Positions 20,729-36,658 of a stretch of 38,206 bases of DNA are shown piece after piece. The notes beneath the pieces are model-generated. The model was not told where the DNA came from. It worked only from the letters and a program-made list of their open reading frames with translations, and did no database searches. The stretch spans positions 1-38,206 of the forward strand of contig JBDGRJ010000002.1 in assembly GCA_042218115.1 (NCBI GenBank), written 5' to 3'. The number at the start of each line of letters is the position of its first letter. The stretch's first letter is position 1. Source of the DNA: Minisyncoccia bacterium (GTDB lineage: Bacteria > Patescibacteriota > Patescibacteriia > Magasanikbacterales > UBA922). A program made the position numbers and the translations under genes.

Positions 20729-20757
20729 GACATCCTCCCGGATGTTAGAGTCAATGT

Positions 20758-20838
20758 ACCCACAGAAAGATTCTGTGGGTGGCTCGAGTCTCTACGAGCA
20801 GACAATACACCTCAGTGCACTCTCTGCTCGTAGAGACT
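20758..20838 (-). promoter_or_regulatory. two strong stem-loops or inverted repeats in the leader of the lipoprotein gene
   Basis: A 9-bp stem acccacaga (20758-20766) / tctgtgggt (20772-20780). A perfect 15-bp inverted repeat agtctctacgagcag (20787-20801) / ctgctcgtagagact (20824-20838) with a 22-nt spacer. Both lie 30-110 nt upstream of the ATG at 20728. Confidence 0.5.
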
Positions 20839-20903
20839 GTGATCGGCAAATTTTAAAGAACATTCATAAACACCCTCATCACAACATACAACAATCATAT
20901 GCT

Positions 20904-20946
20904 GTGAAAAGGGCCGGGCGAATGGTCGGTGTGTCCATCGCCCGGC
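20904..20946 (-). terminator. intrinsic terminator of the coiled-coil/beta-barrel gene
   Basis: gccgggcgaatgg (20913-20925) / ccatcgcccggc (20935-20946), 12 bp with one bulge. On the minus strand it is followed by ccttttcac. It starts about 24 nt after the stop at 20970. Confidence 0.65.
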
Positions 20947-20969
20947 AGAGATTTTTCGCCAGAATCGGC

Positions 20970-21998
20970 TCAGAATTTGACTCTGAAACCGACCTGACCC
21001 CCCCTTCCTGCGTCCGTGCGTCCTGGCGAGGAGACCAGCCCGAAGTTACCCGAGCCGACCAGTGCGAACCGATCGGTGGGAGCCCATCGCAGACCGGCAC
21101 TCACCAGGTAGTACCGGAACTCCGTGAAACCTTCGCCCAGGTTTTCCGCCTGGGCGTATCCCAGGTGAACCGGGATCTCGAGCTCCGGGGTCACCTCGAT
21201 CGAGGTGCCGAACTCACCTTTGAAGGCGGGCCGACCTCGAGCCGCGGTAACGCCCCCTCCGAGTCCGAACTCTCCCTCGAGGGAGAGGTTGGACTCGTGG
21301 TAGGGTTTTCTCAAGGCCACCTTGGCCAGCCCTCCGGTGAAACCGGGTCCGCCGGAGAAGGAGAAGATCGAGAGCCCCCCGTAAGTGCGGAGACTCTCGG
21401 AATCCTGGCGCTTGTTTACCTTCTCGTTCTTTTGCGCCAGGCTCTTCGCCTGCTTGGCGGTCTCGGCGTTCTGCTCGAGGCGCTTCCGGATGCTCTCGAG
21501 CGATCCAGCAATCTTGACCAGCGCCTCGTGCTGGTCCTTGTTTTGCCGCTCGAGAGTCTTTGTTTTCCGGTCGTACTTCTCCTCGAGCTGCTCGAGGTCC
21601 TCCTGGATTTTCTCGAGCTTCTTGTTGACCGACTCCTTGTCGGCCTTCTTCTTCAGCTTCTTGTCGATCTCCTGGCTGATCTCCTTGAATCGCTTCTTCA
21701 CCTCAGAGGCATCGGCCTTGCCCCTCAGCTTCCGGTTCAACTCTCCGATTCGCTCGGAGAGCGACTCGTCTTTCTTCGACTGTTCGTCAAGCCGATCCTT
21801 GTTCAGCTCGGTTTTGCTCTCGACGAAGCGCAGCCTCTCGGCGGCGGTTCGCTGCCTTTTGTTCTGCTTGCACAGCTTGCGCTGTGCTTTCCTCTCGTAC
21901 GAGTCACACTTGACGTCGTTCCCACCGCCGGCAAAGGCGAAAGCGGGAACGAACAGGGCGATAGCGACGATCGTGAGGTTCAGCATCTCCTTGGTCAT
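20970..21998 (-). CDS. signal-peptide protein: long coiled coil plus a C-terminal outer-membrane beta-barrel-like domain
   Basis: The likely start is the Met at 21998 (MTKEMLNLTIVAIALFVPAFAFA-GG), preceded by gggagaccagacc. The ORF track extends to 22064. About 190 aa are heptad-like K/E/L-rich. The last ~140 aa alternate hydrophobic and polar residues with G-rich turns and end ...GQVGFRVKF. A C-terminal aromatic residue is the classical OMP signature. Confidence 0.7.
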   Translation of the reverse strand: MTKEMLNLTIVAIALFVPAFAFAGGGNDVKCDSYERKAQRKLCKQNKRQRTAAERLRFVESKTELNKDRLDEQSKKDESLSERIGELNRKLRGKADASEVKKRFKEISQEIDKKLKKKADKESVNKKLEKIQEDLEQLEEKYDRKTKTLERQNKDQHEALVKIAGSLESIRKRLEQNAETAKQAKSLAQKNEKVNKRQDSESLRTYGGLSIFSFSGGPGFTGGLAKVALRKPYHESNLSLEGEFGLGGGVTAARGRPAFKGEFGTSIEVTPELEIPVHLGYAQAENLGEGFTEFRYYLVSAGLRWAPTDRFALVGSGNFGLVSSPGRTDAGRGGQVGFRVKF

Positions 21999-22097
21999 GG
22001 TCTGGTCTCCCAGTGAAAGTATGGGTGTAAAACCCGTTAATGAAACGACGCTCTCACGAACCACCTAGGCAAAGCCTAAATGAGTTCGAATAAAGCG

Positions 22098-22131
22098 GGC
22101 AAGAAGTAGAATTTCATCTCTACTCCTTGCC
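22098..22131 (-). terminator. hairpin terminator after the 205-aa gene
   Basis: ggcaagaagtaga (22098-22110) / tctactccttgcc (22119-22131), 13 bp with one mismatch and an 8-nt loop. On the minus strand it is followed by cgctttattcg. Confidence 0.5.
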
Positions 22132-22179
22132 AAGCGACTCTCTGTTCTCATCCAGCGCAGATGCGCTAAGATGAGAGGG

Positions 22180-22797
22180 TCAGGAGTCGCTGTCCTTCTG
22201 GTGACGTTCCCGGATGTCTTGAATCCGATTGGAGACCACGTACTCGTTTTCGAACCAATACGCGATCTCGACGAGATCGCCGCAGTCTCCGGGGCTGTCG
22301 ACATCGGCGCAATGCTCGAGCGCCAATGAGGGGGTGGCCCCGATCAGCCCTTTGTAATCGTTGACGTGCTTCCACACGCCCTTCTTCTTCAGTCGGACCT
22401 TGACCCGTTCCTTCAGCGGCTCCTCTTCGTTCTCGGGCTCGCCGGAGTCGGTCTGATCGGGTTCCTTTCTCTCTTCGGACTGTTCGTCCGGGTCGGCCGT
22501 CTCCTTCTGGGCGGTCTTCTGCTTGTTGTCGTCGAAGTCGGTCGTGGCGGTCGTGGCGTTTCGCAAGATCGGCCATGCGACCAGGACGAACACGGCAACG
22601 GCGCCGAAAAGTGCCGCCAAAACCCCCAACCAAGTAGGGATGCCGCTGCCCGGGTCGCGCATCTCCTCGTCCTCCGGATCATCGGGCCCTTCGGGCTCCT
22701 GCTCGCCTTCCGGCGGCTTAGGGGGGCCGCCCGAATCGTCGGATCCGTGCATCTGGTCGGTTCCGGTTCGATCGCGAGAGTCGTCACCGTTGGACAT
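22180..22797 (-). CDS. bitopic acidic membrane protein of unknown function
   Basis: Strong SD (ataggaggacaaccATG). Acidic/Pro-rich N-terminus, one TM helix (IPTWLGVLAALFGAVAVFVLVAWPIL), an acidic linker, then a ~70-aa C-terminal globular region (VWKHVNDYKGLIGATPSLALEHCADVDSPGDCGDLVEIAYWFENEYVV). The competing frames are Arg-rich shadow ORFs. Confidence 0.6.
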   Translation of the reverse strand: MSNGDDSRDRTGTDQMHGSDDSGGPPKPPEGEQEPEGPDDPEDEEMRDPGSGIPTWLGVLAALFGAVAVFVLVAWPILRNATTATTDFDDNKQKTAQKETADPDEQSEERKEPDQTDSGEPENEEEPLKERVKVRLKKKGVWKHVNDYKGLIGATPSLALEHCADVDSPGDCGDLVEIAYWFENEYVVSNRIQDIRERHQKDSDS

Positions 22798-22980
22798 GGT
22801 TGTCCTCCTATCAAGTCGAGTAGTGAGAGGCGAAAAAGCCTCTCAGGTGAAAAGATCGCAGAACGTAGCCAAAAGCTACTTTAAATATAACGGACTTATA
22901 CTTAAAGCAGCCTTCGACTGTGATTGTAAAAGCGATTATAAGACCATATCATGATAAGACAATTTTGTCAAGTACTAACA

Positions 22981-23021
22981 ACAAAAAAATACAAAAATCT
23001 CACCTTTTAAGCGAGATTTTT
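22981..23021 (-). terminator. intrinsic terminator closing the giant-protein operon
   Basis: Minus-strand RNA reads aaaaaucucgc-uuaaaag-gugagauuuuu followed by guauuuuuuu. The single plus-strand a:c mismatch becomes a G:U pair only in the minus-strand transcript, which supports this orientation. It lies 74 nt after the stop at 23095. Confidence 0.65.
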
Positions 23022-23094
23022 GCTAAATTAAGCGAATTGTTTAATTAAGACTTCTAGCTAAGCCTGAGACGTAATATTTTTAAAAGACGGAGTG

Positions 23095-26000
23095 TTACTG
23101 ATTATCCACTATGTCTCGTACTTCTTCTTTGGCTAGTTCAAAGTTTTCTTTGGCTTGCTTTATTAACTCTTCATCTCCGGTACCCAGGGCTTCTCTCAGC
23201 TGTGTTCTGGCTTCTAAAAGATTTTTTGAAACTTCAGCATCCGGGTTATTTTCTACCCAACCCCAATATTCACCCTTCAATAGATCTACATCTGTGTCAG
23301 GTATTGCATCGCTTCCAGATTCTAACATTTCTTCTAAGCCTGCATCCTCTATCAGATCTGGGTTAAAGTCACTGTATTCAAGCGAAGGGTACTCTTGTAC
23401 CAAATCTTTTATCCTCTCTCTCATGCCCTCCTGTACCGCTTGTGCTTCTTCAGGTGAGACCATATCAGTAATGCCATCATAAAATTTGTCTAATCCGGCC
23501 AACTCTCTGGTCGCTTCATTGTCAATCGGGGTTTCAGTAATACCTTCAGAGCCAAAGACTCTCTGAGCAATCTCTTCTTCGCTAAACTGAAAGCCTTCAG
23601 TTTCTAAAATTTCTGAGATGTTATAGCTTTCATCAAAGTCTATCAAAATATCATTTCTAATATCAGGGAGCCCCTCAAATGATCCGAGCTCTGTAGTCCC
23701 CTCTAGTGCCTCAGTCATCTTTTCCGATATTTCATCCGGATTCTCTATACCGACCCTTTCAGCTGCTTGCTGAGCTGCCTCCGCTCCGCCCTCTTGGTAG
23801 GCCTCTAAAACTTGAGTTTGAGCTTCGTTTATACCCTGCTCGGAAACATCCCCTGCAAAGTCTTCCTCGGAGAATAAATCTATAGCTTCTACCCCTTCTC
23901 CACCCCAGTCAAATTGTATTGCCTTACCCGTAGTTCCGGCCTCTTCTGCTTCTGTAGCGGCAGAAACCGTCTCTCCCACATCAGGTGGGGCTCCTCCAGT
24001 GATGTCTTCTGAAGACTGCCCTTCTGCTGATTCACCCCCTGCTCCACCTGTAGTTGCCCCCTCTTGGCCTATCTGACCTCCACCATTCTCAATCATTGAC
24101 ACCAGCTCATCCGGGCTTGATGGGTGAAGCTCTTCTCCACTATCATCCAGTAGATTTATATCATCACTTTCTATGAGATTATGTACGGCTTCGGGGTCTT
24201 TTACATCCATATTATCGGTAAACATATTTACTTTAAGTTCAGGCTCACCATCTTCAAATACCATACCAACAGTAGTTTCATGACCATCTCCACTGGCCAA
24301 CAGACCGAAATCTTCATATTTGAACCCTTTGGACGGATCTATACCGAATTTTTCTGATTGTAGCACTCGCCAATTGTGGATAACCTGATCATCATTCAAT
24401 CCACCCCACTTATCATGAGACTCTCGTATCTCCTCAGCTAAATTTTCCTTGCCGAACTCTTCTTGTATATCGTTCACCGCATGTAAGAACCCCTCTCCTT
24501 TCTCTACCGTACCTTCAGCTACAACTTCACTTGCAGCTGATTCACTCATCTCTTGGGCTGTTTCTCTTGCTAATTCCTCAGTTGCTCCCCCTGCAGCTAC
24601 CGCTTCTTTAGCTGATTGAGCCGCACCTTCTTCACTTCCAGCTACTGCTTCAGCCCCTCGAGAAAGTCCCCAATAAGCCAATAGGGAGCCGCCGGCTACT
24701 GAAAGCAAGCTTTGCCTTCTTTTCTCGGCAGACAACTCTTGAATTGCAGATTCTGATTTTCTCTCAGCTTCCTTAGCTCGCTGCTTATCCAAAAAGTTTT
24801 CAATCCGGTTTGCTGTTTCATTCTCTCTTCTAACCAGCTCTTGGCCCAACTTTTCATATAGATCCCTGTATCGGCTATTTTTGATCCTTTTAATTTTTCC
24901 TGAAGCTCGCTGAGCTTCTATCATACCCATCTTTTCTTCTATCCTATCCCTGCTCATGTTTTGCAGCTCATCTCTGGAAACATCCCTCAGAAGGCCTGTT
25001 TTTTCTCTTTTACTGAGAGACCACATTTCTAACAAATTGTAAGTTAAATCTTTACCACCCCCAAATCTCATTGCTCCGCCCAGGGCCACCATTCCAAAAC
25101 CAACACCGGTAGTTGCACCTACCATAAATCCACCGTAAGTTAAGGCTATAGTAGAAGCAGTTCTTACGGAAGCTGCCCGACCGAGGAACTCTCCCGCAGC
25201 ACTTAACCAGCCCCCTTCTTCATCGGGTTGTTTTTCTTTTTTCTCACCAGAAGATAAATTATAAACATTAAAGCTACCCAACCACTTCAAAACTTGGTTG
25301 GCCTTGCTGCCTACTTTCTCCAATATTCCTTGATTTTCCAGCATCTTGTCTCTTTTTTTCTCGGCTAGCTCTAGCCTCTCATCAATATCTTTTTCTATCT
25401 CACCCCCAACATACTCTGCCCTAAGCTCAAAGTACTCTTCTTCAGCCTCTTCTAACTCTCGCTTAGCTTCTCTTATTTTCTGCTGATCTTTAAATAAGCC
25501 GAAAAACTTGCCTTGCTTAGCATCTCTCAGCTTTTCTCTGGCGGCAGCGAACTTTTCTCTGGCTCGCTCTACCTCTCTTTTTGAGACAGAAGGTTCTTGC
25601 TCCTCTTCGGGTTCTCCTTCATCTCCCATAGAAACTGCCATTTCATCGAGCAGATCATTTTGGTTCTCTCTGGTCTTTCTTAAGTTATTCTTTATTTTTT
25701 CCCAGATCTGTTCTATCTCTATTTCTTGACCGTTTATTTCTACCTTATTTTTTTTGTCATCTATCTGTCTTAAATAATCTAGTGCATCCTGTGCTTGCTT
25801 TCTTTTCTGTTCACCATAATAGTTAAAGTCTGAAAATCTGGTGAGAATGCCTTGGCCAGACTCCAACAAAGTGCTATATATATCTCTTACTCTTTCATCA
25901 ATATCCACCTCCCCTTCTTCTTGTTCTCCATAATACTTTTTCATTCTAGAGGTATCTACAACTTCTTTTATTCTTTCTTGTTCCTCCTCTCCTATGACAT

Positions 26001-29000
26001 ACTTTTCACCATCTTTCTTTAGTAATCCTCTATCGACTAGTTGTTCTAAATATTCTTCGTCTATCTCTGTATTGACTGCACCTTGTTTCACTTCACTGCT
26101 GGAAACTACTATACCAGAAGAGTCAAACTCAATACCACCATCTTCAACTTTAAACTCAGTAATGCCTGAGGTCGCTATTACTTTTAGCCACTCTTCAGCT
26201 TTTTGCAGACTATCTATGTCCCAACCTTCAACATCTACACTTTCTGACTCAGAAGAAGCTTCCTCGGTAGTTTCTTCTATAGATACAAGCTCTGCAAAGG
26301 CTCTATTTTTCCTTAAATCCAGTTCATTAACCTCAAACTTTACCCTATCACCCACCTCTGCACCCTCTACGTTGACCTTAAAGCCATCCTCCAAATATAC
26401 TCTGCCGGTATCTCCTGGGCCAAGCTCTTCTACCTCACCAGTATAGGTCTCACCTTCTTCCACTGGAGTCTCATTCAATATCTCCTCAACATTTTCAAAC
26501 TTATCTATTCTGTTTCCTACTACCCAAATTTCACCCTCTGGGACCCTTTGATGCTGATCATGACCTACCAGTATACCCAACTCAACTAACCTATCAACTA
26601 CCTCATCTTCAAAATCCAGGTCGTCTTGTTCAAACTTTCCGCCCCTGTCTTCATAATGATTTTGGAGCCAGCTTAAGGCTCGGTCCAGGTCCTCGATCAA
26701 ATCCTCATTTTCGCTGTCCGTTTCCTCCCCCTCTTCGCCTTCATCTTCTGGGCTTTCTTTTGAGACTAGATTTGCCCAAGCTCTTTTAGTTCTAATATTA
26801 ACGTCATCTATATCTTCTATTTCATACTCTATTATATCTCCCATCTCAGCACCTTCTATAATTACCTCATATTCACCATGCTGTATTAGGCCTCTGCCTT
26901 GATGGTCTGTCTCGGAGACTCTACCTTCAAACTTTTGATTTAATTTTGGTATTTCATCCACTATTTCTTGAATGCTATCAAATTTGTCTATTCTGTTCCC
27001 CACTACCCAAAGTTCGTCATCAGGTATTCTATTGTCTCTTCTATCTTCTTCATTGCTTATTAGAATCCCATACTTGATTAGATCATCTATTACTTCCTGT
27101 TCAAAATCCAGATTATCTTTTTTAAATTTGCCGTTTACTTCTTCATGATTATCTTGTAGCCACTCTAGGGCTTGGTCTAAATCTTGTTCTACTTCTATGT
27201 CTGGACCAGTTTCTTGTGTTTGTTGGTTAGCCTCCCTTGTTGTCTCTGAAGGCAGTTTTGCAAAAGCAATACCTCTATCAGGTTTAACATCTTCAACTTC
27301 AAATTCCACAGTCTCACCTTTTTCAGCACCCTCTACAAATACAATAAAATTATCGGAAAAACGTGCTATGCCATCACCCTCCCTGCCTTCTTCTGTAATC
27401 TCTTTCTCGTAAGTTCTCCCCTCTTCCACAGGAGAATCATGTTCTTCAATAATATCCTCCAGACTATCGTGTCTATGCATAGTCAAACCATTGACCCAAA
27501 CTTCACCTTCGGGTACTTGACTCTTATCTTCGTTGCTCAATAAAACCCCGTAACTAATTAATTGATTCAGCAGGTCCCTGTTTATATTTAAATCTTCTTT
27601 TTTAAACTTTCCATCTACTTCTTCATAATGTTCTTTTATATAATTGAATGCACTTTGAAGGTCTTCATTAATCTCGCTAGCCTCTGGTTGGGGAGCGGAT
27701 ACTTGGTCTTCATCATAATCTCTAACCTCCTGTAATTTTACTTTAGCAAAGCCCTCTCTAACAGCTGGAGACCGGCCGGAGTTGGGTTCAAAAATTTTTA
27801 CATCCACTTTAGCGCCCACTAATTCTTCATCAAAATTATTTTTTCCAAACTCCTGTTGTAAAACATTTGTAGTTTCTGGGGTATTTTTAACAAGTAGCTT
27901 GTAATCTATATCTTCCAGCTCAATTACTCCATCGTTATTATCTATTGAGCCAATCTCAACATCGGTGAACTCTTTCCCTTCTTCTATTTCTTCGGGGGCA
28001 TTTTCAATTTCATCCAAGGATTCTAAGATTGTTTTGTAACTCTCGCTGTGTATAACCTTTTTAAATCTATCTGTGATATAGAAATTATCCTCTTCTTGTT
28101 TTATAAATTTATTTTCTATTAATTTAGAAACAAGACCATCAAGATTCTCACTTATTAAACCCCTCAACTCTTCTACTTCTACCTTAGGTTCCTTCTCTTG
28201 GTTTAGGGTCGATTGCCTAAAGAGGTTAAGTTCTAACCAATCTGAAAGCTCTTCTCTACTGGCAAATTCATCTTGAGGCAACTGCTCAAAATGATAGTCT
28301 ATGTTTGCTTCAAGCATATCATTAAGCTGTTGCTCATATTCATCTATAGTATAAGTCGCACCCTCTACTTTAATCTCCTCATTCTCTATATGCTCCTTGT
28401 GAGGGTAAATAATTTGTTTAAATTCACTGATTAAACTTGAAAGTTCGCTCACTCGTTCTCGTTCTAGTATCGGAAAGTCATTCTCGTTCTCTATATCTTC
28501 CAACTCATACTCATGCAATGATATAATATCACCCATTATCTCACTCAGTTCTTCTACCTTTCTTTCTCCCATAACCTCAGCTAACTCCGAGATAGAGAAA
28601 CCTTGCGGGTTTACAACCTCTGAGATCTCAATATCCACGAAATCACCCACCTCATAATCATTATCATCAGAAAAGACATCTTTTACGATCACATTTCTGC
28701 CATTAATTTTGACTAGCCCGTCACCAGTTTTTTCTCCATCCTCTTCCAACTCTTTCACAACCCTTTGGGTATATCTTTGGCCTTGCTCAAACTCACCGGC
28801 TTCTATGACAGGATACTCGTGTTGTTCCGGTAATATGGTGGCATAGGCTACATCATCTTGGGTATTTACTCCCGTAATTTCAATCTCTTTTGTTTCGTCA
28901 TAATCTGAAGGTATGGCATTTCGTATCTTTAAGTTAAACCCACCAAAGGTATTAAACATATTTAGTTCAGATTCTTCTTCATTATAAACCCCCTCTTTAA

Positions 29001-30894
29001 GCTCAAGCCGAAAAGTCTCGCCTTCTTCTACTGGGCTGGTGCTTTCTTTAATTTCTCCGAAGTCTTTTTCTGCTACAATCCTATATTCATCTTCTTCTAA
29101 GTCGTCATTCTCTTCTACTGATTCTAAGACACCCGCTCGCTGAAGTCTCGAGATTACTCTATCCGGAAATAAAGAAAGTTCATCCTTTTTAACTGTATCC
29201 CCTAGATTGTACTTATGGTTTTTAAGCCATCCATTTGCGAACTTAGTACTATCAATAGTTTTACCTCCTATTACCTCAGCAGAACCGTTGCTCCCGTGAC
29301 CACCAACATTCGTAATTTTTATATCTACTACATCACCCTTCTCGACCCCGGCATTTATATACACCCTATTTCCAGCAGTTGTTTCTATATAGTAATCTCC
29401 ATCTTCTTTCTTTTGTGATATCTTTACATCTCTTATAATGCTTCCTTCGGAAAACTCATTTTCTGTAATTTCTTCCCGAATTTCATTCGGTTCCGGGGCT
29501 GGTTCGGGCTCAGTGTCTGCATTTGAATCATCATTTAGTCCATCAGCCGCCTGCTCATGAAAGCGCTCACTCTCCTCAATGACCTCTTCTAAAAACTCAA
29601 GCTGGTCTTCATAGTCTTGATATGTACACTCTTCACTCAAGCCGTATTCCTCAAGAAGCAATTCAGGGTTATCATCATACTCTTCCATTTTTTGCTCAAA
29701 ATTACTTTTTTTGTTTTTTAACATTTCCAGGCCCGCTTCATCATATATTGGCTCACTATATTCATCGGGATACCTCTGAGAATCCAACTCATGAGACTGA
29801 AGCTCACCTCTAAAGCTTAAAATCTCAGAAATATCATCGGCTACAGAAAAATCCTCCTTAGCTTCCACGATTTCTTTAAAAGCATCTAATAACTCCCGGA
29901 CCTCCACTTGTCCGAGGTTATTAAACTCTACTGTGACACCATCTATATCAAAGTCTAGATCCTCTTTCTCATCTTTAGCATTTTGAAAACCTACCTCTAA
30001 TCTTTCCAACCTTAGATCATCTAAGACCTCCCTTCCTATTTTTATCTCTCCTGAAGCATCTCTAGCTAATCCTATATTTGGTAATTTACTAACTACTTTT
30101 TCAGCAGACCATTTCTCCAATTTCTCTTTTATTTCTTCCTGCTCAAAACTGTGCTCTCCGGAAGTATCTATAATGCCTTTGTCTATCCAGTCTTGCTTCC
30201 ATCCATTGCCTGAGTTGTAAATTTTCTCCTCCCAAAGCTCTTCCCAGCTCTCTTCGTCCAACTTCTCAAACTCTTCTGTAAGCACCTGTTTTATATCTTC
30301 TTTGGTAGCGCTATCTAAGTCAGCATCATACAAAGCTCTCAAAACCTGCTCTTCTGTCAAACTCACTTTAGTCAAACCCTCTTCTTCTGCATAATCTTCT
30401 ATCCGACTCAAATCTGATACGACATAGGAGTTCTCACCAGAATTGTATTCTACTCCATTATTTCTTAGCTCTTCTAGTATCTCTCTTAACTCATCCGTAT
30501 CTACTTGATTAAAATTTCTCGCAGCAAGCCCTAAATTACCAGCTACCATCTGATAGCCATTCTCTCGTTTCAGAAGCCAATCAATAACTTCAGCCTTTTT
30601 CTCAGAAGAGACAAAACCTTCTGCTTCTTCTCTAAATTCACCAGTAATTAAATCTTCTATATATTCAACGGCATCAAAGTCGTCCTCATGAGCACTCCAC
30701 AAAAAATCATCTAGTGAAATACCATGGCCATCTAAAATACCCCTTAAAGTTTCACTGACTTCCGACTCATCTATCAGACCGGAAGACTCTTTAAAAGTTT
30801 CTAAATCACTTAAAATATCCCCCTTCTCTTGAGGAGATAAATTGTTTAATTCATGTTGTATAGAACCTTTTTTATCCTCTAAATTTTCTATCAT
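23095..30894 (-). CDS. giant (2,599 aa) hyper-acidic protein with about 7 TRAM-like beta-barrel modules, a central Gly/Ala-rich membrane hairpin and a C-terminal acidic region
   Basis: A single uninterrupted ORF with no N-terminal signal peptide. TRAM-like modules lie at nt ~26290-29450. Hydrophobic block GGWLSAAGEFLGRAASVRTASTIALTYGGFMVGATTGVGFGMVALGGAMRFGGG is at ~25055-25215. A second hydrophobic segment, RRQSLLSVAGGSLLAYWGL, is at ~24640-24725. No catalytic motif recognised. Confidence 0.85.
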   Translation of the reverse strand: MIENLEDKKGSIQHELNNLSPQEKGDILSDLETFKESSGLIDESEVSETLRGILDGHGISLDDFLWSAHEDDFDAVEYIEDLITGEFREEAEGFVSSEKKAEVIDWLLKRENGYQMVAGNLGLAARNFNQVDTDELREILEELRNNGVEYNSGENSYVVSDLSRIEDYAEEEGLTKVSLTEEQVLRALYDADLDSATKEDIKQVLTEEFEKLDEESWEELWEEKIYNSGNGWKQDWIDKGIIDTSGEHSFEQEEIKEKLEKWSAEKVVSKLPNIGLARDASGEIKIGREVLDDLRLERLEVGFQNAKDEKEDLDFDIDGVTVEFNNLGQVEVRELLDAFKEIVEAKEDFSVADDISEILSFRGELQSHELDSQRYPDEYSEPIYDEAGLEMLKNKKSNFEQKMEEYDDNPELLLEEYGLSEECTYQDYEDQLEFLEEVIEESERFHEQAADGLNDDSNADTEPEPAPEPNEIREEITENEFSEGSIIRDVKISQKKEDGDYYIETTAGNRVYINAGVEKGDVVDIKITNVGGHGSNGSAEVIGGKTIDSTKFANGWLKNHKYNLGDTVKKDELSLFPDRVISRLQRAGVLESVEENDDLEEDEYRIVAEKDFGEIKESTSPVEEGETFRLELKEGVYNEEESELNMFNTFGGFNLKIRNAIPSDYDETKEIEITGVNTQDDVAYATILPEQHEYPVIEAGEFEQGQRYTQRVVKELEEDGEKTGDGLVKINGRNVIVKDVFSDDNDYEVGDFVDIEISEVVNPQGFSISELAEVMGERKVEELSEIMGDIISLHEYELEDIENENDFPILERERVSELSSLISEFKQIIYPHKEHIENEEIKVEGATYTIDEYEQQLNDMLEANIDYHFEQLPQDEFASREELSDWLELNLFRQSTLNQEKEPKVEVEELRGLISENLDGLVSKLIENKFIKQEEDNFYITDRFKKVIHSESYKTILESLDEIENAPEEIEEGKEFTDVEIGSIDNNDGVIELEDIDYKLLVKNTPETTNVLQQEFGKNNFDEELVGAKVDVKIFEPNSGRSPAVREGFAKVKLQEVRDYDEDQVSAPQPEASEINEDLQSAFNYIKEHYEEVDGKFKKEDLNINRDLLNQLISYGVLLSNEDKSQVPEGEVWVNGLTMHRHDSLEDIIEEHDSPVEEGRTYEKEITEEGREGDGIARFSDNFIVFVEGAEKGETVEFEVEDVKPDRGIAFAKLPSETTREANQQTQETGPDIEVEQDLDQALEWLQDNHEEVNGKFKKDNLDFEQEVIDDLIKYGILISNEEDRRDNRIPDDELWVVGNRIDKFDSIQEIVDEIPKLNQKFEGRVSETDHQGRGLIQHGEYEVIIEGAEMGDIIEYEIEDIDDVNIRTKRAWANLVSKESPEDEGEEGEETDSENEDLIEDLDRALSWLQNHYEDRGGKFEQDDLDFEDEVVDRLVELGILVGHDQHQRVPEGEIWVVGNRIDKFENVEEILNETPVEEGETYTGEVEELGPGDTGRVYLEDGFKVNVEGAEVGDRVKFEVNELDLRKNRAFAELVSIEETTEEASSESESVDVEGWDIDSLQKAEEWLKVIATSGITEFKVEDGGIEFDSSGIVVSSSEVKQGAVNTEIDEEYLEQLVDRGLLKKDGEKYVIGEEEQERIKEVVDTSRMKKYYGEQEEGEVDIDERVRDIYSTLLESGQGILTRFSDFNYYGEQKRKQAQDALDYLRQIDDKKNKVEINGQEIEIEQIWEKIKNNLRKTRENQNDLLDEMAVSMGDEGEPEEEQEPSVSKREVERAREKFAAAREKLRDAKQGKFFGLFKDQQKIREAKRELEEAEEEYFELRAEYVGGEIEKDIDERLELAEKKRDKMLENQGILEKVGSKANQVLKWLGSFNVYNLSSGEKKEKQPDEEGGWLSAAGEFLGRAASVRTASTIALTYGGFMVGATTGVGFGMVALGGAMRFGGGKDLTYNLLEMWSLSKREKTGLLRDVSRDELQNMSRDRIEEKMGMIEAQRASGKIKRIKNSRYRDLYEKLGQELVRRENETANRIENFLDKQRAKEAERKSESAIQELSAEKRRQSLLSVAGGSLLAYWGLSRGAEAVAGSEEGAAQSAKEAVAAGGATEELARETAQEMSESAASEVVAEGTVEKGEGFLHAVNDIQEEFGKENLAEEIRESHDKWGGLNDDQVIHNWRVLQSEKFGIDPSKGFKYEDFGLLASGDGHETTVGMVFEDGEPELKVNMFTDNMDVKDPEAVHNLIESDDINLLDDSGEELHPSSPDELVSMIENGGGQIGQEGATTGGAGGESAEGQSSEDITGGAPPDVGETVSAATEAEEAGTTGKAIQFDWGGEGVEAIDLFSEEDFAGDVSEQGINEAQTQVLEAYQEGGAEAAQQAAERVGIENPDEISEKMTEALEGTTELGSFEGLPDIRNDILIDFDESYNISEILETEGFQFSEEEIAQRVFGSEGITETPIDNEATRELAGLDKFYDGITDMVSPEEAQAVQEGMRERIKDLVQEYPSLEYSDFNPDLIEDAGLEEMLESGSDAIPDTDVDLLKGEYWGWVENNPDAEVSKNLLEARTQLREALGTGDEELIKQAKENFELAKEEVRDIVDNQ
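26290..27700 (-). repeat. three tandem coding repeats of about 480-490 nt (helical unit plus TRAM-like barrel)
   Basis: Units begin at ~27670 (LQSAFNYIKEHYEEVDGKFKKEDL...), ~27190 (LDQALEWLQDNHEEVNGKFKKDNL...) and ~26700 (LDRALSWLQNHYEDRGGKFEQDDL...). Each ends in an EGAE-x-GD-x-[VI]-x-[FY]E[IV] barrel. Confidence 0.8.
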
Positions 30895-30913
30895 AGATAA
30901 AAGTTTTATTTAC

Positions 30914-31222
30914 TTAAATATCAAGATCGCTGACCTTATCTTTCAATTCCTGCTTTACTTGTAGCACCTCCTGTCTTAACATATCTTCAAAATCATCTAT
31001 CTGCTCCAATAGTGAATTGACCTTCTGCTGGTTTTGGTTGTCTATAGCGTCTATAAACTCTTGTCTCTGCTTTTCTGAAAACTTGTCTATAACTTTATTA
31101 AATAACCGCTCTTGAACTAAATCGGTCGCTTTTCTTAAGATTCGTGCCTTCCTTTCATCATCCAATGACTCAATGCCTAAAATGGAAATTATATTTTCTT
31201 GTAATAAAGATTGAGAATCCAT
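30914..31222 (-). CDS. small helical protein (102 aa), DUF5663-like; partner of the 2,599-aa giant
   Basis: ILGIESLDDERKARILRKATDLVQERLFNKVIDKFSEKQRQEFIDAI...VLQVKQELK. This pattern matches, from memory, the CPR-restricted small helical family I believe is Pfam DUF5663 (to be verified). It is homologous to ORF 36317..36658 and ends 19 nt before the giant gene. Confidence 0.7.
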   Translation of the reverse strand: MDSQSLLQENIISILGIESLDDERKARILRKATDLVQERLFNKVIDKFSEKQRQEFIDAIDNQNQQKVNSLLEQIDDFEDMLRQEVLQVKQELKDKVSDLDI

Positions 31223-31256
31223 ATCGTAAAATTAAATATTTTAAAAATTTTTGAAA

Positions 31257-34200
31257 CTAAACTGACTCCCTAAGCTGTTCCAATTCTTCTTCTTGGGTTT
31301 GTTGTAGCCTCTCTTTCATCAAGACCAACTCTGCTGCTACTTTATTCAGTTCTTTTAAGTCCTCTATTCTCTGCTCAATCTGTTCTTGATCCTCCAGCTC
31401 ACTAATAGCATTTACCTCGCTTTCTATTTTTTCTTTTACTCCCGCCAATGCACCTCCTCCTTCCAAAACAAACTCAAGCCCCTCTTGAAGTTCTCCATCA
31501 CTGCTGTCTTCTCGCATATCCAAAGCTTGCAGATAAGCAAACTCAGTCTGAAGGCTGTCAATATTTCCATTCCACTCCTCGGATCGGTTGATCATATCAC
31601 CAAATCTATCTCCAAATTCTCCTCTCTCCGGCATCTCAACATCATATATTTCATCTAACTCCTCTTTAAACTCACCGTCCTCATTTATCACTAATATATC
31701 TTCAAGCTCTTCAAATCTATCCCCTCTTTCTTGTTCAATATCTTCTACGGTCTCCATCTCCATCATCTCTTCCTTTACTGCAATAACAGTTCTAAAATTC
31801 TCATTGAACTCACCTATATCTACATCAGCACCTGCCTCCATTGTGTCGGGGTGATTATTAAACAACCAAGTCTCTTTCATCTGCTCCAACTCAGACAAAG
31901 TGAAATCAGAAATTCTCGCATCTTCTTCCAAGTTGAGCTCCTCTTTAACGTATTGCCAAGCCTCTTGAAATTCTTCGCTATTTTCCAGCTGATCCTCATA
32001 AATTTCCACAGCTGTTTCTTCACTTTCTTCGGCCTGCATCATAACCTCTTTAGGTACTGGAAGACTTTCGGGGCTACCTTCTACCTTGGTTAATGCGGAG
32101 GTAGGTCTTTTTATAGGAAGCTTATCTTCCTGTCCGGTAGGTGGTGGAGGAGTTGGCCCCGGACCATCAGTAGTGGTTCCTCCGCCTCCGCCGCCACCTT
32201 CATCATCATCGTCTGTCTCTTCTCTTTGTCTCCTCTCAGGTTCTATACCCGCTCCCACTTTTTCTCCGGAATGAGGATAAATATCGAAAGCAGGAAATAC
32301 ATTCGGGCCATCTTCAGCAGTAGGCTCAGTGAGAGTTACTTCATTCATATAGCTATTTACAGTCTCCGCAGCCATTTCAGCTGATACAGCTGAATCCGGA
32401 GTTCCTTGTCCTTGTACAGATGAGTAGATTAAAGCTTTATCACCTTGAGCTTGATCAGAACCATGTTCAACAATCTCCATCAGATCGGCTTTCAAAACAG
32501 CCTCACCACCTGGCCCTTCTTCAAAGCACATATCATATGCCGGGTGGCTTTTAGGTATTTCTACTGATCCATCCGCATCGAAAGGAATCTGAAAACGTTC
32601 TGCTCCAGAAGCTTCTTCTGGTCTAATCTCCAAGAACATCCTTCCTTCACTTAGTGCTTCATTGGGTTTACCAATAATATCAGAGGGAAAGTCAGTTTGA
32701 GAGCCTGCTATCTGTTCTCCCTGGGCATTGGTGGCAAATTCTTCCATATCGATCTTAAACTCAATATTTCCCTGACCATCAAAGCCGCTCTCAGATACTC
32801 CCCCCCAGTAGCTTCTCAACTCATTAAAATCATAAGTATCAGGAGTCTCATTTCCTAACCAAATTTTATCGGATTGATCAAGTTGATACACATCAGACAT
32901 TTTATCTGATAGCTGGTCCATTTTGTCTGCTGCCGGTACTTCACTCATCTCCCATCCACCCATGATACTTTGTACATTTTCACTCATACCACCTTGGGGC
33001 ACAATCCCCTCGGAACCAAGACGGTTAATGGTTTTTTGAGTTAGGGCCCCTGTTTTATGATTAAAGTCTAGTGGAACTTGATCACCTTCCGGAGTGAACA
33101 GCTCGGCCTCATGAGAGCCGGAACTGGGCTGAATATTAAAACCTTCAGGTAGATTTATATTTAATTCACCACCACTCAGCTGCATGGTTTGTGAATGATC
33201 GGGCGCCAGATAATTTATAGAGTCTTTTGCCCCACTTATCCAATCACCCATAGAATCCAATACACTCGCTGCTACAGTCTGATTTTCTCCCTGCTCCCAG
33301 CCTGCGATAAAATCGAATACACCTTGAGTTTCTGGTTCGCTAGTCCAACTTACTGCATTGGATCCTTCCCAACCCAGCTCTGCCGTCTCTGCCAGTGCGG
33401 CACCGCCGATCATACCAAAGGTGCCTGCTGCCGTAGCTTCTCGTAATGCCTTTTGTCTACGATAACTATCGAAGTGTTCTTGCAGTTCTTGCTCATACTC
33501 TGAATAGGCGGGTAAGAATCGCTCTTGATATCTGTGTTCTATAGTTTGATCGATTGTGTCAGGAGCTATGTTATGTTTTTCTTTTAAGCCTTGTTTGATT
33601 TCAGCTTTTAATACCATCAAATTTGCATGAATATCTTCAGTTTCTCTGGCTTGATAATTAATCATATTTCTGTTTTCGTCACGCTCGAATTTCTGTCTGT
33701 TTTCTATCTCAGCTAACTGCTCCATTACTTGTTCCAACTCTTCGTCAGACAGGTCACCTCGAAGCTCAAAGCTATCGTCTTTACAATATTCAGTCTGAAA
33801 CCTGTCTACAAAATTTTCTGCATTTAGCATTTCTAATGAAAACTGCTCCAGCTCTTCTCTGAACTCCTCCTCTTCAACAGTCTCTTCCCCTCTAGCTTTT
33901 GCCTCCTCAACATAAGCTTGTTGTTCTTTTAACCTTTTAGAGGATTCAAAATATTTACCTACTCCAACACCAGCACCAAGCCCAACCAGACCTCCTACTG
34001 CTGAGCTAGCTCCGTAAGCGGCTCTTTGGCCTAAAAATCCTGCAGCTCCTGCTGTAGCTCCAACTACACTCGCTGCATTAACCGGAACTTTTTCTGCAAT
34101 TTTTGATTTTTGTACCGCATCCACCATCTTGTCAAGCGCTCCATACTCTTCTTCCGCTTCCCGTTTAAATTTAGAAGCGGCTTCACCGATGGTGACATCC

Positions 34201-36296
34201 ATCTGTTGTACTTGATCCAGATGAATTATACCGTCACGTACACCTTTAGCAATCTCTAGGGAGTTATCTGCAAATACGGAAGGTGGCGGTATGTCTTCAT
34301 TGCCAAAATGTTCTTCCATTATGTCATTTTTTTGCTCTAAAAACTCGGCTTCGGACATATCGCCTACAGCAAAATCAGCTATTAGATCATGTATATCTTC
34401 TTTTAGTGCCTCTCCTCTCTCAGAATTTACCTCCATATACTCATCTTCTTGCAGTGCTGCTTCACCAAAATCTTCATCAAACCGCTCCATCAGAGATTTT
34501 ACAGCTTTTCTATTGTCTTCTTCGTCCACTATATCTTCCTCTCTACCAGCATAAATATTGTTTTCATCTTCTTTTTGAGTCCTTGACTCCCTAAGCTCCT
34601 TATTTTTTTGGTAATTTTTACTAATACCTTCTATGAATCCACCGGCACCTGAAAAGAAAGAATTTACTACTCCTTGAGCTTCGCCAGCTCTTTCAGCAGC
34701 TCTTTTGAAAGGAAAGCTTACCGTCTTTTTAATAGTCTCCCAAGTACCTTCTCCTTCCATCTCCTGTTTTCTCTCTTCTTCTACCTCTTTTTGCGCCTCA
34801 AACCGAGCTTGTTTTTCTGCTAGATCAGAAGCATCTATGGCTTTCAGACCTTCATCCATTAACTTTTCCAATCTTTCTCGGCGTCCACCCCCTTCTCCTC
34901 CTTCTGTTCCAGTATCTGTTGTGCCTGTAGTATCTTCCTCCTCTTCTCTTTGTTTTAAAATGTCGGTTGTCTCACGTAAAATAGCTAAATGTTGAGCCAA
35001 AGCATTTTGCTCACGATCAGATAAATTCTGTAGGCCGCGATCTTGTATGTCTACGGCTTTCTTTTGGCTTCTATCACGCATCTTTTTAAGATCCTCAGTA
35101 TCTCTATCTGAATAATCAAAGCTTTCCCGCATCTCCTTTACCCTCTCTTCAATCATATCTGCGATCATCTCAGCACTCAGCTCGTCTTCTATTTTTTCAC
35201 CTTCTTGTTTCTGGTCCTCGCTTTCCAGGTGAGAAGTGGCTTCTCTAAGGTGGGCAAAATTTTGGGCTAAAGCATTTTTTTCTCGCTCTGATAGTTGATC
35301 CAAGCCATCCTCTCTTATTCTTTTTTGAAATTTTTGAACTTTCTTTTGACTTTTTTCTTTAATTTCTTCCAGTTCCTCCTGGCTCCTCTGTTCATAGTTC
35401 AAACCCTGCTGTATCTCATCAGCTCGAGCCAATACTGCATCCGCAAGATCTTCTGCACTAGCACCTTCACTCTCTTCCGCTTCCTTACCTCTGGAGATTT
35501 CCATTATCTCATTAGTTATTTTATCTAACCGTTTCTCGATCTCTTTTATCCCCATAGTTTCACCTTTGCTGTCTATACGGTCAGCTTCTTCTAACTTATC
35601 GAGAAGCTCTTCTTTTTGGTTTATAAGCTCCTGCAGTCTTGATTGTTCTTTTTCTGATAAATTAGCCGACCACTCCTCTCTGGAAGCACTTATAATTTTA
35701 TTGGTGACTTTATCTAATTCTGACTTAATATTATCAATTTCGCTTTGACGGCTAGTATTTTCAAGTTTTTGTTTTAATTCTTCTTTATCCTCGATTAACT
35801 CATCCAGATCTTTTTCTGCCTCTGCCCCAGTTTGCTCCGAAGCAGGTTCGGCTTTGGCTTCTGGTTCTTGATCGCCCCCCTCTTGTAAGTAACCAGAGTT
35901 AGCCTCTTTTATATAACGTTCAAGTCGGTCTTGATCGAGATTTGAATTTTCAATTTTTTTATCTAGTTCCGACCTAATTTTTTTCAGCTCCTCTTCAACC
36001 TTACTAATTTCGTCATGCTCATAATCCATACTCTCCAATTCTTCACGTAATTTCAGCTCTTCCTGTTTTAGCTCAGCAATAGGTTGAGCCTGCTCCCTAG
36101 CTTCTATCTCCTCTCGTATATCATTAATTTCTCTCTGTAGCTCTTCTCGTTCGCTCTTGTCCGGTTCGATATCCTCAAGCTCTTCTAGTTCATCTTGTAG
36201 ATCTTCTATGGCTTGCTGGTTAGAATCTAGTTCTTTTTTACGAGCCCCGCCCTCTATTGTAGCCTCTGGCGGGCGACCTGAAGTTTCTCTACTCAT
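31257..36296 (-). CDS. giant (1,679 aa) hyper-acidic coiled-coil protein with a central Gly/Ala-rich membrane hairpin
   Basis: A single ORF with no signal peptide. The N-terminal ~750 aa are E/K/D/Q-rich with internal repeats. Hydrophobic block VPVNAASVVGATAGAAGFLGQRAAYGASSAVGGLVGLGAGVGVGKYF is at ~33955-34095. A second segment, RRQKALREATAAGTFGMIGGAALAETAELGW, is at ~33370-33440. The linker DDDDEGGGGGGGTTTDGPGPTPPPPTG is at ~32140-32225. Confidence 0.85.
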   Translation of the reverse strand: MSRETSGRPPEATIEGGARKKELDSNQQAIEDLQDELEELEDIEPDKSEREELQREINDIREEIEAREQAQPIAELKQEELKLREELESMDYEHDEISKVEEELKKIRSELDKKIENSNLDQDRLERYIKEANSGYLQEGGDQEPEAKAEPASEQTGAEAEKDLDELIEDKEELKQKLENTSRQSEIDNIKSELDKVTNKIISASREEWSANLSEKEQSRLQELINQKEELLDKLEEADRIDSKGETMGIKEIEKRLDKITNEIMEISRGKEAEESEGASAEDLADAVLARADEIQQGLNYEQRSQEELEEIKEKSQKKVQKFQKRIREDGLDQLSEREKNALAQNFAHLREATSHLESEDQKQEGEKIEDELSAEMIADMIEERVKEMRESFDYSDRDTEDLKKMRDRSQKKAVDIQDRGLQNLSDREQNALAQHLAILRETTDILKQREEEEDTTGTTDTGTEGGEGGGRRERLEKLMDEGLKAIDASDLAEKQARFEAQKEVEEERKQEMEGEGTWETIKKTVSFPFKRAAERAGEAQGVVNSFFSGAGGFIEGISKNYQKNKELRESRTQKEDENNIYAGREEDIVDEEDNRKAVKSLMERFDEDFGEAALQEDEYMEVNSERGEALKEDIHDLIADFAVGDMSEAEFLEQKNDIMEEHFGNEDIPPPSVFADNSLEIAKGVRDGIIHLDQVQQMDVTIGEAASKFKREAEEEYGALDKMVDAVQKSKIAEKVPVNAASVVGATAGAAGFLGQRAAYGASSAVGGLVGLGAGVGVGKYFESSKRLKEQQAYVEEAKARGEETVEEEEFREELEQFSLEMLNAENFVDRFQTEYCKDDSFELRGDLSDEELEQVMEQLAEIENRQKFERDENRNMINYQARETEDIHANLMVLKAEIKQGLKEKHNIAPDTIDQTIEHRYQERFLPAYSEYEQELQEHFDSYRRQKALREATAAGTFGMIGGAALAETAELGWEGSNAVSWTSEPETQGVFDFIAGWEQGENQTVAASVLDSMGDWISGAKDSINYLAPDHSQTMQLSGGELNINLPEGFNIQPSSGSHEAELFTPEGDQVPLDFNHKTGALTQKTINRLGSEGIVPQGGMSENVQSIMGGWEMSEVPAADKMDQLSDKMSDVYQLDQSDKIWLGNETPDTYDFNELRSYWGGVSESGFDGQGNIEFKIDMEEFATNAQGEQIAGSQTDFPSDIIGKPNEALSEGRMFLEIRPEEASGAERFQIPFDADGSVEIPKSHPAYDMCFEEGPGGEAVLKADLMEIVEHGSDQAQGDKALIYSSVQGQGTPDSAVSAEMAAETVNSYMNEVTLTEPTAEDGPNVFPAFDIYPHSGEKVGAGIEPERRQREETDDDDEGGGGGGGTTTDGPGPTPPPPTGQEDKLPIKRPTSALTKVEGSPESLPVPKEVMMQAEESEETAVEIYEDQLENSEEFQEAWQYVKEELNLEEDARISDFTLSELEQMKETWLFNNHPDTMEAGADVDIGEFNENFRTVIAVKEEMMEMETVEDIEQERGDRFEELEDILVINEDGEFKEELDEIYDVEMPERGEFGDRFGDMINRSEEWNGNIDSLQTEFAYLQALDMREDSSDGELQEGLEFVLEGGGALAGVKEKIESEVNAISELEDQEQIEQRIEDLKELNKVAAELVLMKERLQQTQEEELEQLRESV
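34951..35463 (-). repeat. two tandem 270-nt (90-aa) coding repeats in the 1,679-aa gene
   Basis: gggctaaagcatttt at 35264 and gagccaaagcatttt at 34994 are 270 nt apart. Protein copy 1: ASAEDLADAVL...SQKKVQKFQKRIREDGLDQLSEREKNALAQNFAHLREATSHLES. Protein copy 2: LSAEMIADMIE...SQKKAVDIQDRGLQNLSDREQNALAQHLAILRETTDILKQ. Confidence 0.75.
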
Positions 36297-36316
36297 GTTA
36301 TCTTTATTATTTTTGT

Positions 36317-36658
36317 TTACTGCCTAGAAAGATACATATTCCTAACCTGAAGAATGGCATTACTAAGGATATTATCCACACCATCTACATTTGCTTGAAT
36401 AAACTCTCTAATCTCAGCTGGGTCCGGGTCTTGATCCAACAATTCATCAAACTGGTCTGTTAACCCCTCTTCAGACATGTATTTGACTACTTTATTGTTA
36501 AAAAGATCGTTTATTTCCCCCTCTATGTCATCAATCATCTGTTCTCTAACTTCATCATTTCTAACTTCTAGATCTCTTTCTTCAAAAATACGCTCCGCTG
36601 CCTCTCTAGTAGTGAATTGTGGGGGCTGTTGTGTTTCTGGGGCTGAGTTTTCAGGCAT
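36317..36658 (-). CDS. small helical protein (113 aa), DUF5663-like; partner of the 1,679-aa giant
   Basis: INDLFNNKVVKYMSEEGLTDQFDELLDQDPDPAEIREFI...AILQVRNMY aligns with the 102-aa protein (LFNKVIDKFSEKQRQEFIDAIDNQ...EVLQVKQEL). It ends 20 nt before the giant gene. Confidence 0.7.
   Translation of the reverse strand: MPENSAPETQQPPQFTTREAAERIFEERDLEVRNDEVREQMIDDIEGEINDLFNNKVVKYMSEEGLTDQFDELLDQDPDPAEIREFIQANVDGVDNILSNAILQVRNMYLSRQ

Follow-up and report, generated by a model that had tools for sequence, protein, structure and literature searches.

A giant acidic protein of a Minisyncoccia bacterium with an array of TRAM-like barrels and winged-helix-like modules

The TRAM domain has been studied as a single RNA-binding module, in tRNA- and rRNA-modifying enzymes and in small archaeal RNA chaperones. 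Here we describe a giant protein encoded in a 38,206-nucleotide (nt) stretch of DNA from a Minisyncoccia bacterium (assembly GCA_042218115.1, contig JBDGRJ010000002.1; the whole of this stretch is called the window), in which barrels of this type follow one another in a single chain together with winged-helix-like (WH) modules. Six TRAM modules are established and a seventh is probable. Three of the barrels, each with the helical module that precedes it, form an old tandem triplication. The architecture is rare and undescribed, although it is built from known parts.

Sequence evidence for the TRAM barrels

The barrels are labelled B1-B7 from the N-terminus, and residues are numbered so that codon i begins at nt 30894-3(i-1). 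The array occupies residues (aa) ~480-1655 in the order B1-WH-B2-B3-long helices-(WH)-B4-[WH-B5]-[WH-B6]-[WH-B7]-WH. The original prediction, made from the DNA letters alone, had proposed about seven TRAM-like modules here, and each of the peptides that it quoted was found at its position in the open reading frame (ORF) of the giant. Six of the seven modules are now established, while B4 is only probable.

Our first comparison was done at the level of known domain families. The Pfam TRAM model PF01938, which the original prediction had named as a check, exceeded its gathering score of 21 bits on B5 (aa 1155-1209, 48.2 bits) and B7 (aa 1477-1537, 24.5 bits); on B3 it stayed below this threshold (aa 717-760, 16.2 bits), and B6 alone had no Pfam match. 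The NCBIfam models of PyTRAM (62.6 bits) and of the TRAM extension of aIF2-beta (67.1 bits) both matched B5, under their whole-protein cut-offs. The S1 family (PF00575) gave no match in any module at E values up to 10.

The second comparison used an independent TRAM hidden Markov model (HMM) of 147 domains from unrelated proteins, recovered by exhaustive search. It scored 71 bits on B5, 50.6 on B7, 31.0 on B6, 17.3 on B3 and 9.6 on B1, and none of 300 block-shuffled versions of the giant reached the score of B1 (maximum 5.7 bits). Alignment of profiles by hhalign against the same TRAM family gave E values of 1.6e-24 for B5, 5.5e-20 for B7 and 1e-11 for B6 in the tandem part, and of 3.9e-9 for B3, 1.4e-7 for B2 and 9.2e-7 for B1 upstream; five control segments of the giant ranged from 0.07 to 0.46. 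Four upstream barrels had been described as degenerate, and three of them (B1-B3) are thus TRAM homologues, while B4 is borderline, with an E value of 3e-3 over its first half only.

Two diverged homologues of the giant, P0004 and L002_2290, add to this picture. When B2 was aligned together with its orthologue from L002 its E value improved to 1.6e-9, and the P0004 orthologue of B2 (aa 388-444) reached 32.8 bits on the TRAM HMM. A module orthologous to B4, with the same insertion, occurs in L002_2290. B1 has no counterpart in either homologue.

It is the archaeal stand-alone type of TRAM that these barrels resemble. Among PDB sequences the profile of the three tandem units matched only two entries, 1YVC (E 4e-8) and 1YEZ (E 2e-7), and by sequence the barrels are closest to small stand-alone TRAM proteins and to the aIF2-beta TRAM extension, which only halophilic and methanogenic archaea have (PMC8576121).

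Predicted structures of the modules

According to the models, the TRAM modules form five-stranded antiparallel OB-like barrels. The AlphaFold model of the B5 unit, made from a six-row alignment, had a mean pLDDT of 84.4 and consists of a helix-strand-helix-helix-strand-strand module, two linker helices and a five-stranded barrel with strands at model residues 100-104, 113-119, 122-127, 134-143 and 148-152. Foldseek comparison of this model with the PDB, the structural check suggested beforehand, placed the TRAM proteins 1YEZ and 1YVC first (TM-score 0.75 on the target, root mean square deviation 1.4-1.7 Å, 45-47% identity), followed by the TRAM domains of RlmCD and MiaB and then by S1 domains. 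Against viral structures Foldseek returned only S1 and eIF2-alpha barrels.

The AlphaFold2 model of aa 470-1060 is less certain (mean pLDDT 61.6). All four upstream modules are predicted in it as beta units of 5-6 strands with pLDDT of 56-80, and B4 would have five strands and one inserted helix (pLDDT 64-77). In Foldseek this region was most similar to bS1 (E 5e-6), the S1-type multidomain protein sp_0946 (3GO5), the D3-D4 part of S1 and 1YEZ/1YVC (TM-score 0.64).

The tandem triplication

The three WH+TRAM units at aa 1062-1538 are the product of an old tandem triplication. They share 33-43% identity, with pairwise BLASTP E values from 3e-27 to 1e-38. The periodicity of ~480 nt that had been noticed in the DNA is real: families of direct repeats are spaced 489, 477 and 483 nt apart with 65-73% identity. 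Tandem Repeats Finder reported nothing in nt 23000-31000 because the copies are too diverged, and it is this high divergence that makes the triplication an old one.

Winged-helix-like modules

Each tandem barrel is preceded by a helical unit of ~95 aa, as first noticed by eye, and an HMM of this unit scores 132-137 bits on each copy. With the helical part (~90 aa) as model, two more stretches come up, aa 553-608 at 13.5 bits and aa 1608-1638 with a weak score. The suggestion that these units could be winged helices agrees with their predicted topology, H-b-H-H-b-b with pLDDT of ~87-91 in the B5-unit model; by sequence the repeat units have no match in Pfam or in the PDB. In the model the elements are a helix at residues 16-28, a strand at 35-37, a short helix at 38-40, a helix at 45-53 and strands at 57-59 and 70-73, and their order in this confident part, H1-b1-H2-H3-b2-wing-b3, is the canonical one. 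The Foldseek matches of the same model are dominated by the barrel. Since the topology comes from a model and the sequence searches gave no such match, we call these units winged-helix-like.

Three further modules of this kind are predicted outside the triplication. WH2, between B1 and B2, aligns with aa 310-381 of P0004. The module before B4 has a recognition-helix-plus-wing motif at ~aa 922 and is modelled by AlphaFold2 as helices and a beta hairpin with pLDDT of 30-73. The last one, which is conserved in P0004 from aa 733, matches Pfam HTH_45 at aa 1609-1652 with 25.6 bits (cut-off 25.5) and has weak matches to MCM_C and the Sso10a family. Homology of the repeat unit to this HTH_45-positive copy was not demonstrable (hhalign E 0.047).

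Layout of the giant protein

The features are collected in Table 1. Asp and Glu make up 25% of the giant (17% Glu and 8.4% Asp), and Cys is absent. Its N-terminal part is without a signal peptide, and nothing hydrophobic precedes residue 1900. Downstream of the array there is a Lys/Glu/Arg-rich helix-forming stretch, coiled-coil-like by reading, then Gly/Ala-rich segments and finally the C-terminal domain, whose ~480 aa had no matches in Pfam, NCBIfam or PDB sequence searches. Phage and defence databases added nothing meaningful: PADLOC and PHROGs gave only a PHROGs match of a TRAM-containing methyltransferase on B5.

Table 1. Features of the giant protein and its operon in the window (aa, residues of the giant, or protein length where marked; nt, window positions)
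Feature	aa	nt	Strand	Remarks
Giant ORF	2,599 (length)	23095-30894	minus	single uninterrupted frame
B1, TRAM-like barrel	483-543	29266-29448	minus	five strands in AlphaFold2 model, pLDDT 56-72
WH2	550-606	29077-29247	minus	predicted topology H-b-H-H-b-b, pLDDT 74-83
B2, degenerate TRAM barrel	620-687	28834-29037	minus	AlphaFold2 strands, pLDDT 58-80
B3, TRAM barrel with loop insertions	702-765	28600-28791	minus	present in both homologues
WH-like helical module before B4	907-964	28003-28176	minus	low confidence
B4, probable OB/TRAM-like barrel	971-1054	27733-27984	minus	split by ~25-aa insertion
Tandem unit 1 (WH-like + B5)	1062-1215	27250-27711	minus	
B5, TRAM barrel	1154-1214		minus	part of tandem unit 1
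Tandem unit 2 (WH-like + B6)	1226-1378	26761-27219	minus	
Tandem unit 3 (WH-like + B7)	1389-1538	26281-26730	minus	
B7, TRAM barrel	1476-1538		minus	part of tandem unit 3
Last winged helix	1598-1655	25930-26103	minus	no barrel after it
Gly/Ala-rich segment 1	1900-1948	25051-25197	minus	candidate membrane hairpin, Kyte-Doolittle maximum 1.44
Gly-rich segment 2	2060-2084	24643-24717	minus	weakly hydrophobic, Kyte-Doolittle maximum 0.94
C-terminal domain	2112-2592	23119-24561	minus	best-conserved stretch, common to all family members
Intrinsic-terminator-like hairpin		22991-23023	minus	15-bp stem and T run, 72 nt past the stop of the giant
DUF5663 gene	102 (length)	30914-31222	minus	Pfam PF18908, 31.9 bits; 19 nt upstream of the giant
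Second giant acidic protein	1,679 (length)	31257-36296	minus	between the Wzz-like gene and DUF5663
Wzz/PCP-like protein	208 (length)	36710-37336	minus	two predicted transmembrane helices; TIGR01006, E 3.7e-8
PDZ-like protein		37342-38160	minus	weak PDZ matches; 44% identical to L002_345 and L007_301

Membrane association and side of the membrane

The giant had been called membrane-anchored, and this wording was too strong. Its candidate segments are rich in Gly and Ala, and their hydrophobicity falls well short of that of the true transmembrane helices encoded by neighbouring genes. On the published Hessa biological scale, segments 1 and 2 sum to +3.5 and +6.3 kcal/mol, against -4.3 to +1.6 kcal/mol for the helices of the neighbours. 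Across the three homologues the positions of the segments are conserved, with Kyte-Doolittle maxima of 0.8-1.8 and 19-residue Hessa sums of +3.5 to +7.4 kcal/mol. The segments are glycine-zipper-like, as in GFMVGATTG. Because of their weak hydrophobicity anchoring of the giant by them is plausible at most. The operon partners of the giant are integral membrane proteins by their predicted helices. The array itself probably stays in the cytoplasm, since there is no signal peptide and ~1,900 residues of N-terminal part precede the first candidate segment.

A small family with a conserved operon

An exhaustive HMMER scan with the unit profile against 1.84 billion representative proteins found the whole WH+TRAM unit in one other protein, P0004 (1,928 aa, JGI sample 3300010232). 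This protein shares with the giant the WH-barrel-barrel core (giant aa 546-762, E 9e-11), a winged-helix unit and the C-terminal domain (35% identity, E 2e-38). The third member, L002_2290 (2,290 aa), was reached via a homologue of the small gene upstream of the giant; it aligns with the C-terminal part from aa 1884 (33% identity, E 2e-80) and with the core (E 8e-19). Fragments of the window's own locus, 79-84% identical, were present in two sequencing runs, and one of them (L006, 79% identity) keeps the N-terminus of the giant. The family therefore appears very small in these searches, with three diverged members and near-identical fragments, so far from metagenomes only. The number of barrels varies among its members, with ~2 in P0004, ~2-5 in L002_2290 and 7 in the giant.

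Other searches gave less. A word-indexed homology search with the full-length query returned only the giant itself, an identical protein from a 72.6-kb contig being already on record, and nothing for the C-terminal alignment, probably because the acidic low-complexity sequence swamped the candidates. Looking up the exact sequence of the giant gave no contig. Pattern scans found no relatives of the C-terminal domain or of DUF5663 in GTDB genomes and none in JGI metagenome contigs.

The giant is the last gene of a conserved operon with the order PDZ-like, Wzz-like, DUF5663, giant. The DUF5663 gene of ~100 aa adjoins the giant gene upstream in every locus, namely L001, L002, L003, L006, L007 and the window, and the proteins of the window and L001 share 32% identity (E 6e-17). 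The PDZ-like and Wzz-like genes lie upstream in three lineages, one of which is a halophilic Parcubacteria lineage. The Wzz/PCP-like protein has weak Wzz and GNVR matches and is 72% identical to L002_208 and L007_126. The PDZ-like orthologue L002_345 has an N-terminal transmembrane helix; the true start of the PDZ-like gene in the window may lie upstream of the called TTG, since the orthologues extend 27-70 residues further on the N-terminal side. Intergenic gaps in the window operon are 5-51 nt, and the terminator-like hairpin past the giant gene would mark its end.

The window has two additions to this order. One is the second giant acidic protein (25% Asp+Glu), which has similar Gly/Ala-rich, weakly hydrophobic segments at aa 733-785 and 950-975 and no Pfam or NCBIfam match. 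It is missing from the otherwise syntenic L002, L003 and L007 and so stands outside the conserved core, although L005 encodes a C-terminus 84% identical to it, followed by DUF5663. It could not be shown to be a paralogue of the TRAM giant (nothing by BLASTP; 8.3 bits with high bias by the core HMM). The other is a small gene (36317-36658) between the Wzz-like gene and DUF5663, which was rejected as a second DUF5663 (E 0.49).

A more distant DUF5663 homologue, P0128, was seen in the locus L004 (43-5357), where it lies between a 690-aa protein with Gly-rich hydrophobic segments, similar to those of the giant, and, after a 101-aa gene, an 827-aa ATPase of VirD4/TrwB type.

Comparison with multi-TRAM proteins and known systems

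The statement that TRAM usually occurs as one copy per protein understates what the databases hold. In the exhaustive search many proteins had 2-4 TRAM domains, and at least two were present in 35 of the 92 top matches in which the barrel profile found the domain. Proteins with three or more domains, for which a search had been proposed, do exist: P0003 and P0006 have four Pfam TRAM domains after an N-terminal membrane helix, and the P0006 cluster includes a Kiritimatiellia "TRAM domain-containing protein" (HNR93879.1). Together with P0014 and P0016 they make a set of uncharacterised TRAM architectures that includes fusions of the type TRAM-TRAM-ribosomal protein uS2. Since bS1 docks on uS2 in bacteria, such fusions suggest that in some lineages S1-like functions may be taken over by TRAM arrays. 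Two kinds of matches of the exhaustive search were set aside. Six proteins (P0002, P0005, P0023, P0068, P0066 and P0070) are Ig-like/BapA-type adhesins and false positives, in which many repeats add up weak scores. Proteins of 150 aa with a C-terminal TRAM were considered as stand-alone WH+TRAM units, but their N-terminal domains look different.

Like the giant, the multi-TRAM proteins of the databases carry several TRAM domains per chain and sometimes a membrane helix. They are 200-750 aa long (those with 2-3 TRAM domains ~300 aa), with 2-4 adjacent TRAM domains, and lack the WH module, the DUF5663 operon and the C-terminal domain of the giant; to our knowledge none has been characterised. 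The distinctive traits of the giant are thus its seven copies, the regular pairing with WH-like modules, which is found only in its own family, its size and its operon.

Four known systems can be set beside it. The archaeal TRAM chaperones (TRAM0076/MMP0076, 1YVC; MM1357, 1YEZ) have the same five-stranded barrel and share with B5 the motifs PVEEG, GDGIAR, F-V-FV and AFA. They are single-domain proteins of ~70 aa and nearly neutral, whereas the giant is a bacterial protein with seven strongly acidic copies, most of which are without the essential Arg and Phe. The proteins bS1, with six S1/OB domains, and sp_0946 (3GO5) are likewise strings of small OB-like barrels in which avidity for single-stranded RNA is possible. 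Unlike bS1, the giant has no PF00575 signature, alternates its barrels with WH-like modules, is far larger, ends in an unrelated C-terminal domain and may be attached to the membrane; its likeness to bS1, as known here from the gene and models, is one of predicted fold and architecture only. Unr/CSDE1 follows the same principle of canonical barrels alternating with degenerate or other modules, and its CSD7-8 appeared as a weak fold match at rank 45, but it is eukaryotic and soluble, has the cold-shock-domain fold and shows no homology. In RPA32 and Stn1 an OB-type barrel and a winged helix also occur in one chain. These differ from the giant in the reverse order (OB, then WH), in their single pairs, in serving eukaryotic single-stranded DNA and in having no sequence relationship.

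Possible functions of the array

If the giant carries so many barrels of an RNA-binding type, then we can ask: what could the array do? The reading that we favour, as a real possibility that falls short of being probable, is that the giant, associated with the membrane on the cytoplasmic side, binds single-stranded nucleic acid (probably RNA) through many sites, much as bS1 does. The N-terminal array would stay in the cytoplasm, and the protein would be held at the membrane by its Gly-rich segments, by its membrane-protein partners or by both. The array would then be a multivalent platform of low affinity and high avidity for single-stranded nucleic acid, most likely RNA, which might capture and unfold RNA in the manner of bS1 with its six OB domains or of Unr with its array of cold-shock domains. 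B5 may be the main binding site; the degenerate barrels and winged helices might supply weak contacts, keep the spacing or bind partners.

Several observations are consistent with this reading. A multivalent array, as originally proposed, is what the seven TRAM-type modules in one chain amount to. The barrels are of the chaperone type, and bS1 is the closest structural analogue of the modelled array (aa 470-1060). In TRAM0076 the residues R35, F39, F42, F63 and F65 are needed for RNA unfolding and for complementation of the deletion (PMC6705878). At these five positions B5 has R, F, F, I and F, and is the only barrel to keep four of the five. A variable number of modules, as found among the homologues, is typical of avidity arrays or of spacer arrays.

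Other observations weigh against it. B7 keeps two of the five residues (F39 and F65), B6 has two aromatic equivalents (Y39 and W65), and none of B1-B4 retains more than two; five of the seven barrels have lost most of what TRAM0076 needs. The modules are strongly acidic throughout, their net charges ranging from -3 to -15. The other proteins of the window are moderately acidic (pI 5-6 for enzymes), and adaptation to salt may therefore not fully explain the acidity of the modules. The WH-like assignment of the repeat helical units is one of predicted topology only, and winged helices fit double-stranded DNA or protein partners equally well. On simple scales the Gly-rich segments are too weakly hydrophobic for transmembrane helices. 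Finally, it is the C-terminal domain and not the array that is the most conserved, so the array may be accessory.

The loss of binding residues in most barrels, the acidity of all modules and the variable module number beside a well-conserved C-terminal domain would also suit a structural scaffold or spacer, in which the modules are rigid beads mostly without nucleic-acid binding and the array is an acidic tether or protein platform that positions the C-terminal domain and the membrane proteins. The long helices between modules in the AlphaFold2 model would agree with this. We regard such a scaffold as somewhat unlikely. B5, with its four essential residues, is 45-47% identical to characterised RNA chaperones, and the three tandem TRAM copies have stayed recognisable at 33-43% identity after an old duplication, which suggests selection on the fold and on surface motifs (GDG..R, F.V.V and AFA).

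A role in DNA handling, with winged helices on double-stranded and barrels on single-stranded DNA and the protein held at the membrane for uptake, transfer or segregation, seems to us improbable. The combination of modules does resemble RPA32 or Stn1, winged helices are classical DNA binders, and the last winged helix weakly resembles that of the MCM C-terminus and the helices of the Sso10a chromatin proteins. The only specific support is the distant DUF5663 homologue two genes from a coupling ATPase of VirD4/TrwB type, a hint that membrane machineries for moving DNA may have DUF5663 proteins beside them. However, this homologue (77 bits) is the single source of the link, genes for a coupling ATPase, a relaxase or competence were seen neither in the window nor in L002 and L003, and TRAM domains are known from RNA contexts only (PMC5572242, PMC6705878).

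The last alternative is an extracytoplasmic adhesin or polyanion binder, an exported array that would bind extracellular DNA or RNA or anionic polymers of the host surface for an episymbiotic cell of the candidate phyla radiation (CPR); four-TRAM proteins with an N-terminal membrane helix exist, in which the positive-inside rule would place TRAM outside, the Wzz-like and PDZ-like partners and the flanking glycosyltransferase and Wzy genes point to envelope functions, and CPR bacteria depend on host-derived nucleotides, but we think it very unlikely, because the giant has no signal peptide or N-terminal hydrophobic segment and its first hydrophobic stretch comes after 1,900 residues, we know of no export route for such a long N-terminal part without a signal, and the glycosyltransferase neighbourhood is not conserved in L002 and L003.

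The organism and other features of the window

The L002 contig carries smpB, infC, rpmI and rplT, and at 90% identity its SmpB and phosphoglycerate mutase group with those of "Parcubacteria group bacterium QH_9_35_7", a genome that we take to belong to the Atacama salt-crust study. Metagenome-assembled genomes of Parcubacteria have been reported from Atacama salt crusts (PMC5532433). For the window itself we infer from these sequences a halophilic CPR bacterium, and the very rare family of the giant would then be confined to bacteria of this kind.

At 4900-7040 on the minus strand of the window, a 521-aa DUF5667 protein is encoded behind an ECF sigma factor (185 aa), an arrangement like that of a sigma/anti-sigma pair. 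Together with DUF5663 this pair suggests a gene repertoire of CPR type. At 14041-14749, also on the minus strand, overlapping genes encode a HEPN protein (131 aa) and a minimal nucleotidyltransferase (108 aa), arranged as in HEPN/MNT toxin-antitoxin modules.

The region 18800-22800 stands out sharply by a GC content of 0.58-0.67, against 0.36-0.44 to either side, and could be an island gained by horizontal transfer or a chimera made in assembly. One of its genes (18935-20728, minus strand) encodes a putative lipoprotein of 597 aa, acidic and rich in Cys, with a signal sequence, the lipobox VVSCGG and many repeats of CxxDxDC type; another (22180-22797) encodes a membrane protein of 205 aa.

Over both giant genes (23000-36300) the GC skew of the plus strand is strongly negative (-0.2 to -0.44), which is due to the purine-rich GAA/GAG/GAT coding strand of acidic proteins and is not a replication signal. 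The same coding strand gives rise to long Ser-rich ORFs in antisense, and the plus-strand ORF 25994-26446 is one of these shadows and not a gene. Rfam and tRNA scans of the whole window were empty.

Significance

On present evidence the TRAM giant establishes no new principle, and if its array is only a spacer it would be one more orphan giant protein. What sets it apart is that the archaeal stand-alone type of TRAM occurs seven times, the probable B4 included, in one bacterial protein and is paired there with WH-like modules. In a bolder scenario, which we consider quite unlikely, halophilic Parcubacteria acquired an archaeal-type TRAM, probably from co-resident haloarchaea, and multiplied it together with the winged helix into a giant bS1-like membrane platform that handles nucleic acid with its PDZ-like, Wzz-like and DUF5663 partners. 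Such a platform might capture and unfold RNA at the envelope, localising translation or handling host-derived nucleic acid at the contact site, and if this were true it would be a previously unknown envelope-linked system of nucleic-acid handling specific to CPR bacteria.

The conserved four-gene operon offers a concrete target for studies of envelope organisation or of nucleic-acid handling in CPR bacteria. Should the array bind RNA, an ultra-small host-dependent bacterium would have in it a functional analogue of bS1 or Unr built from TRAM domains, and this would hint at transfer of a domain from archaea to CPR bacteria in salt crusts.

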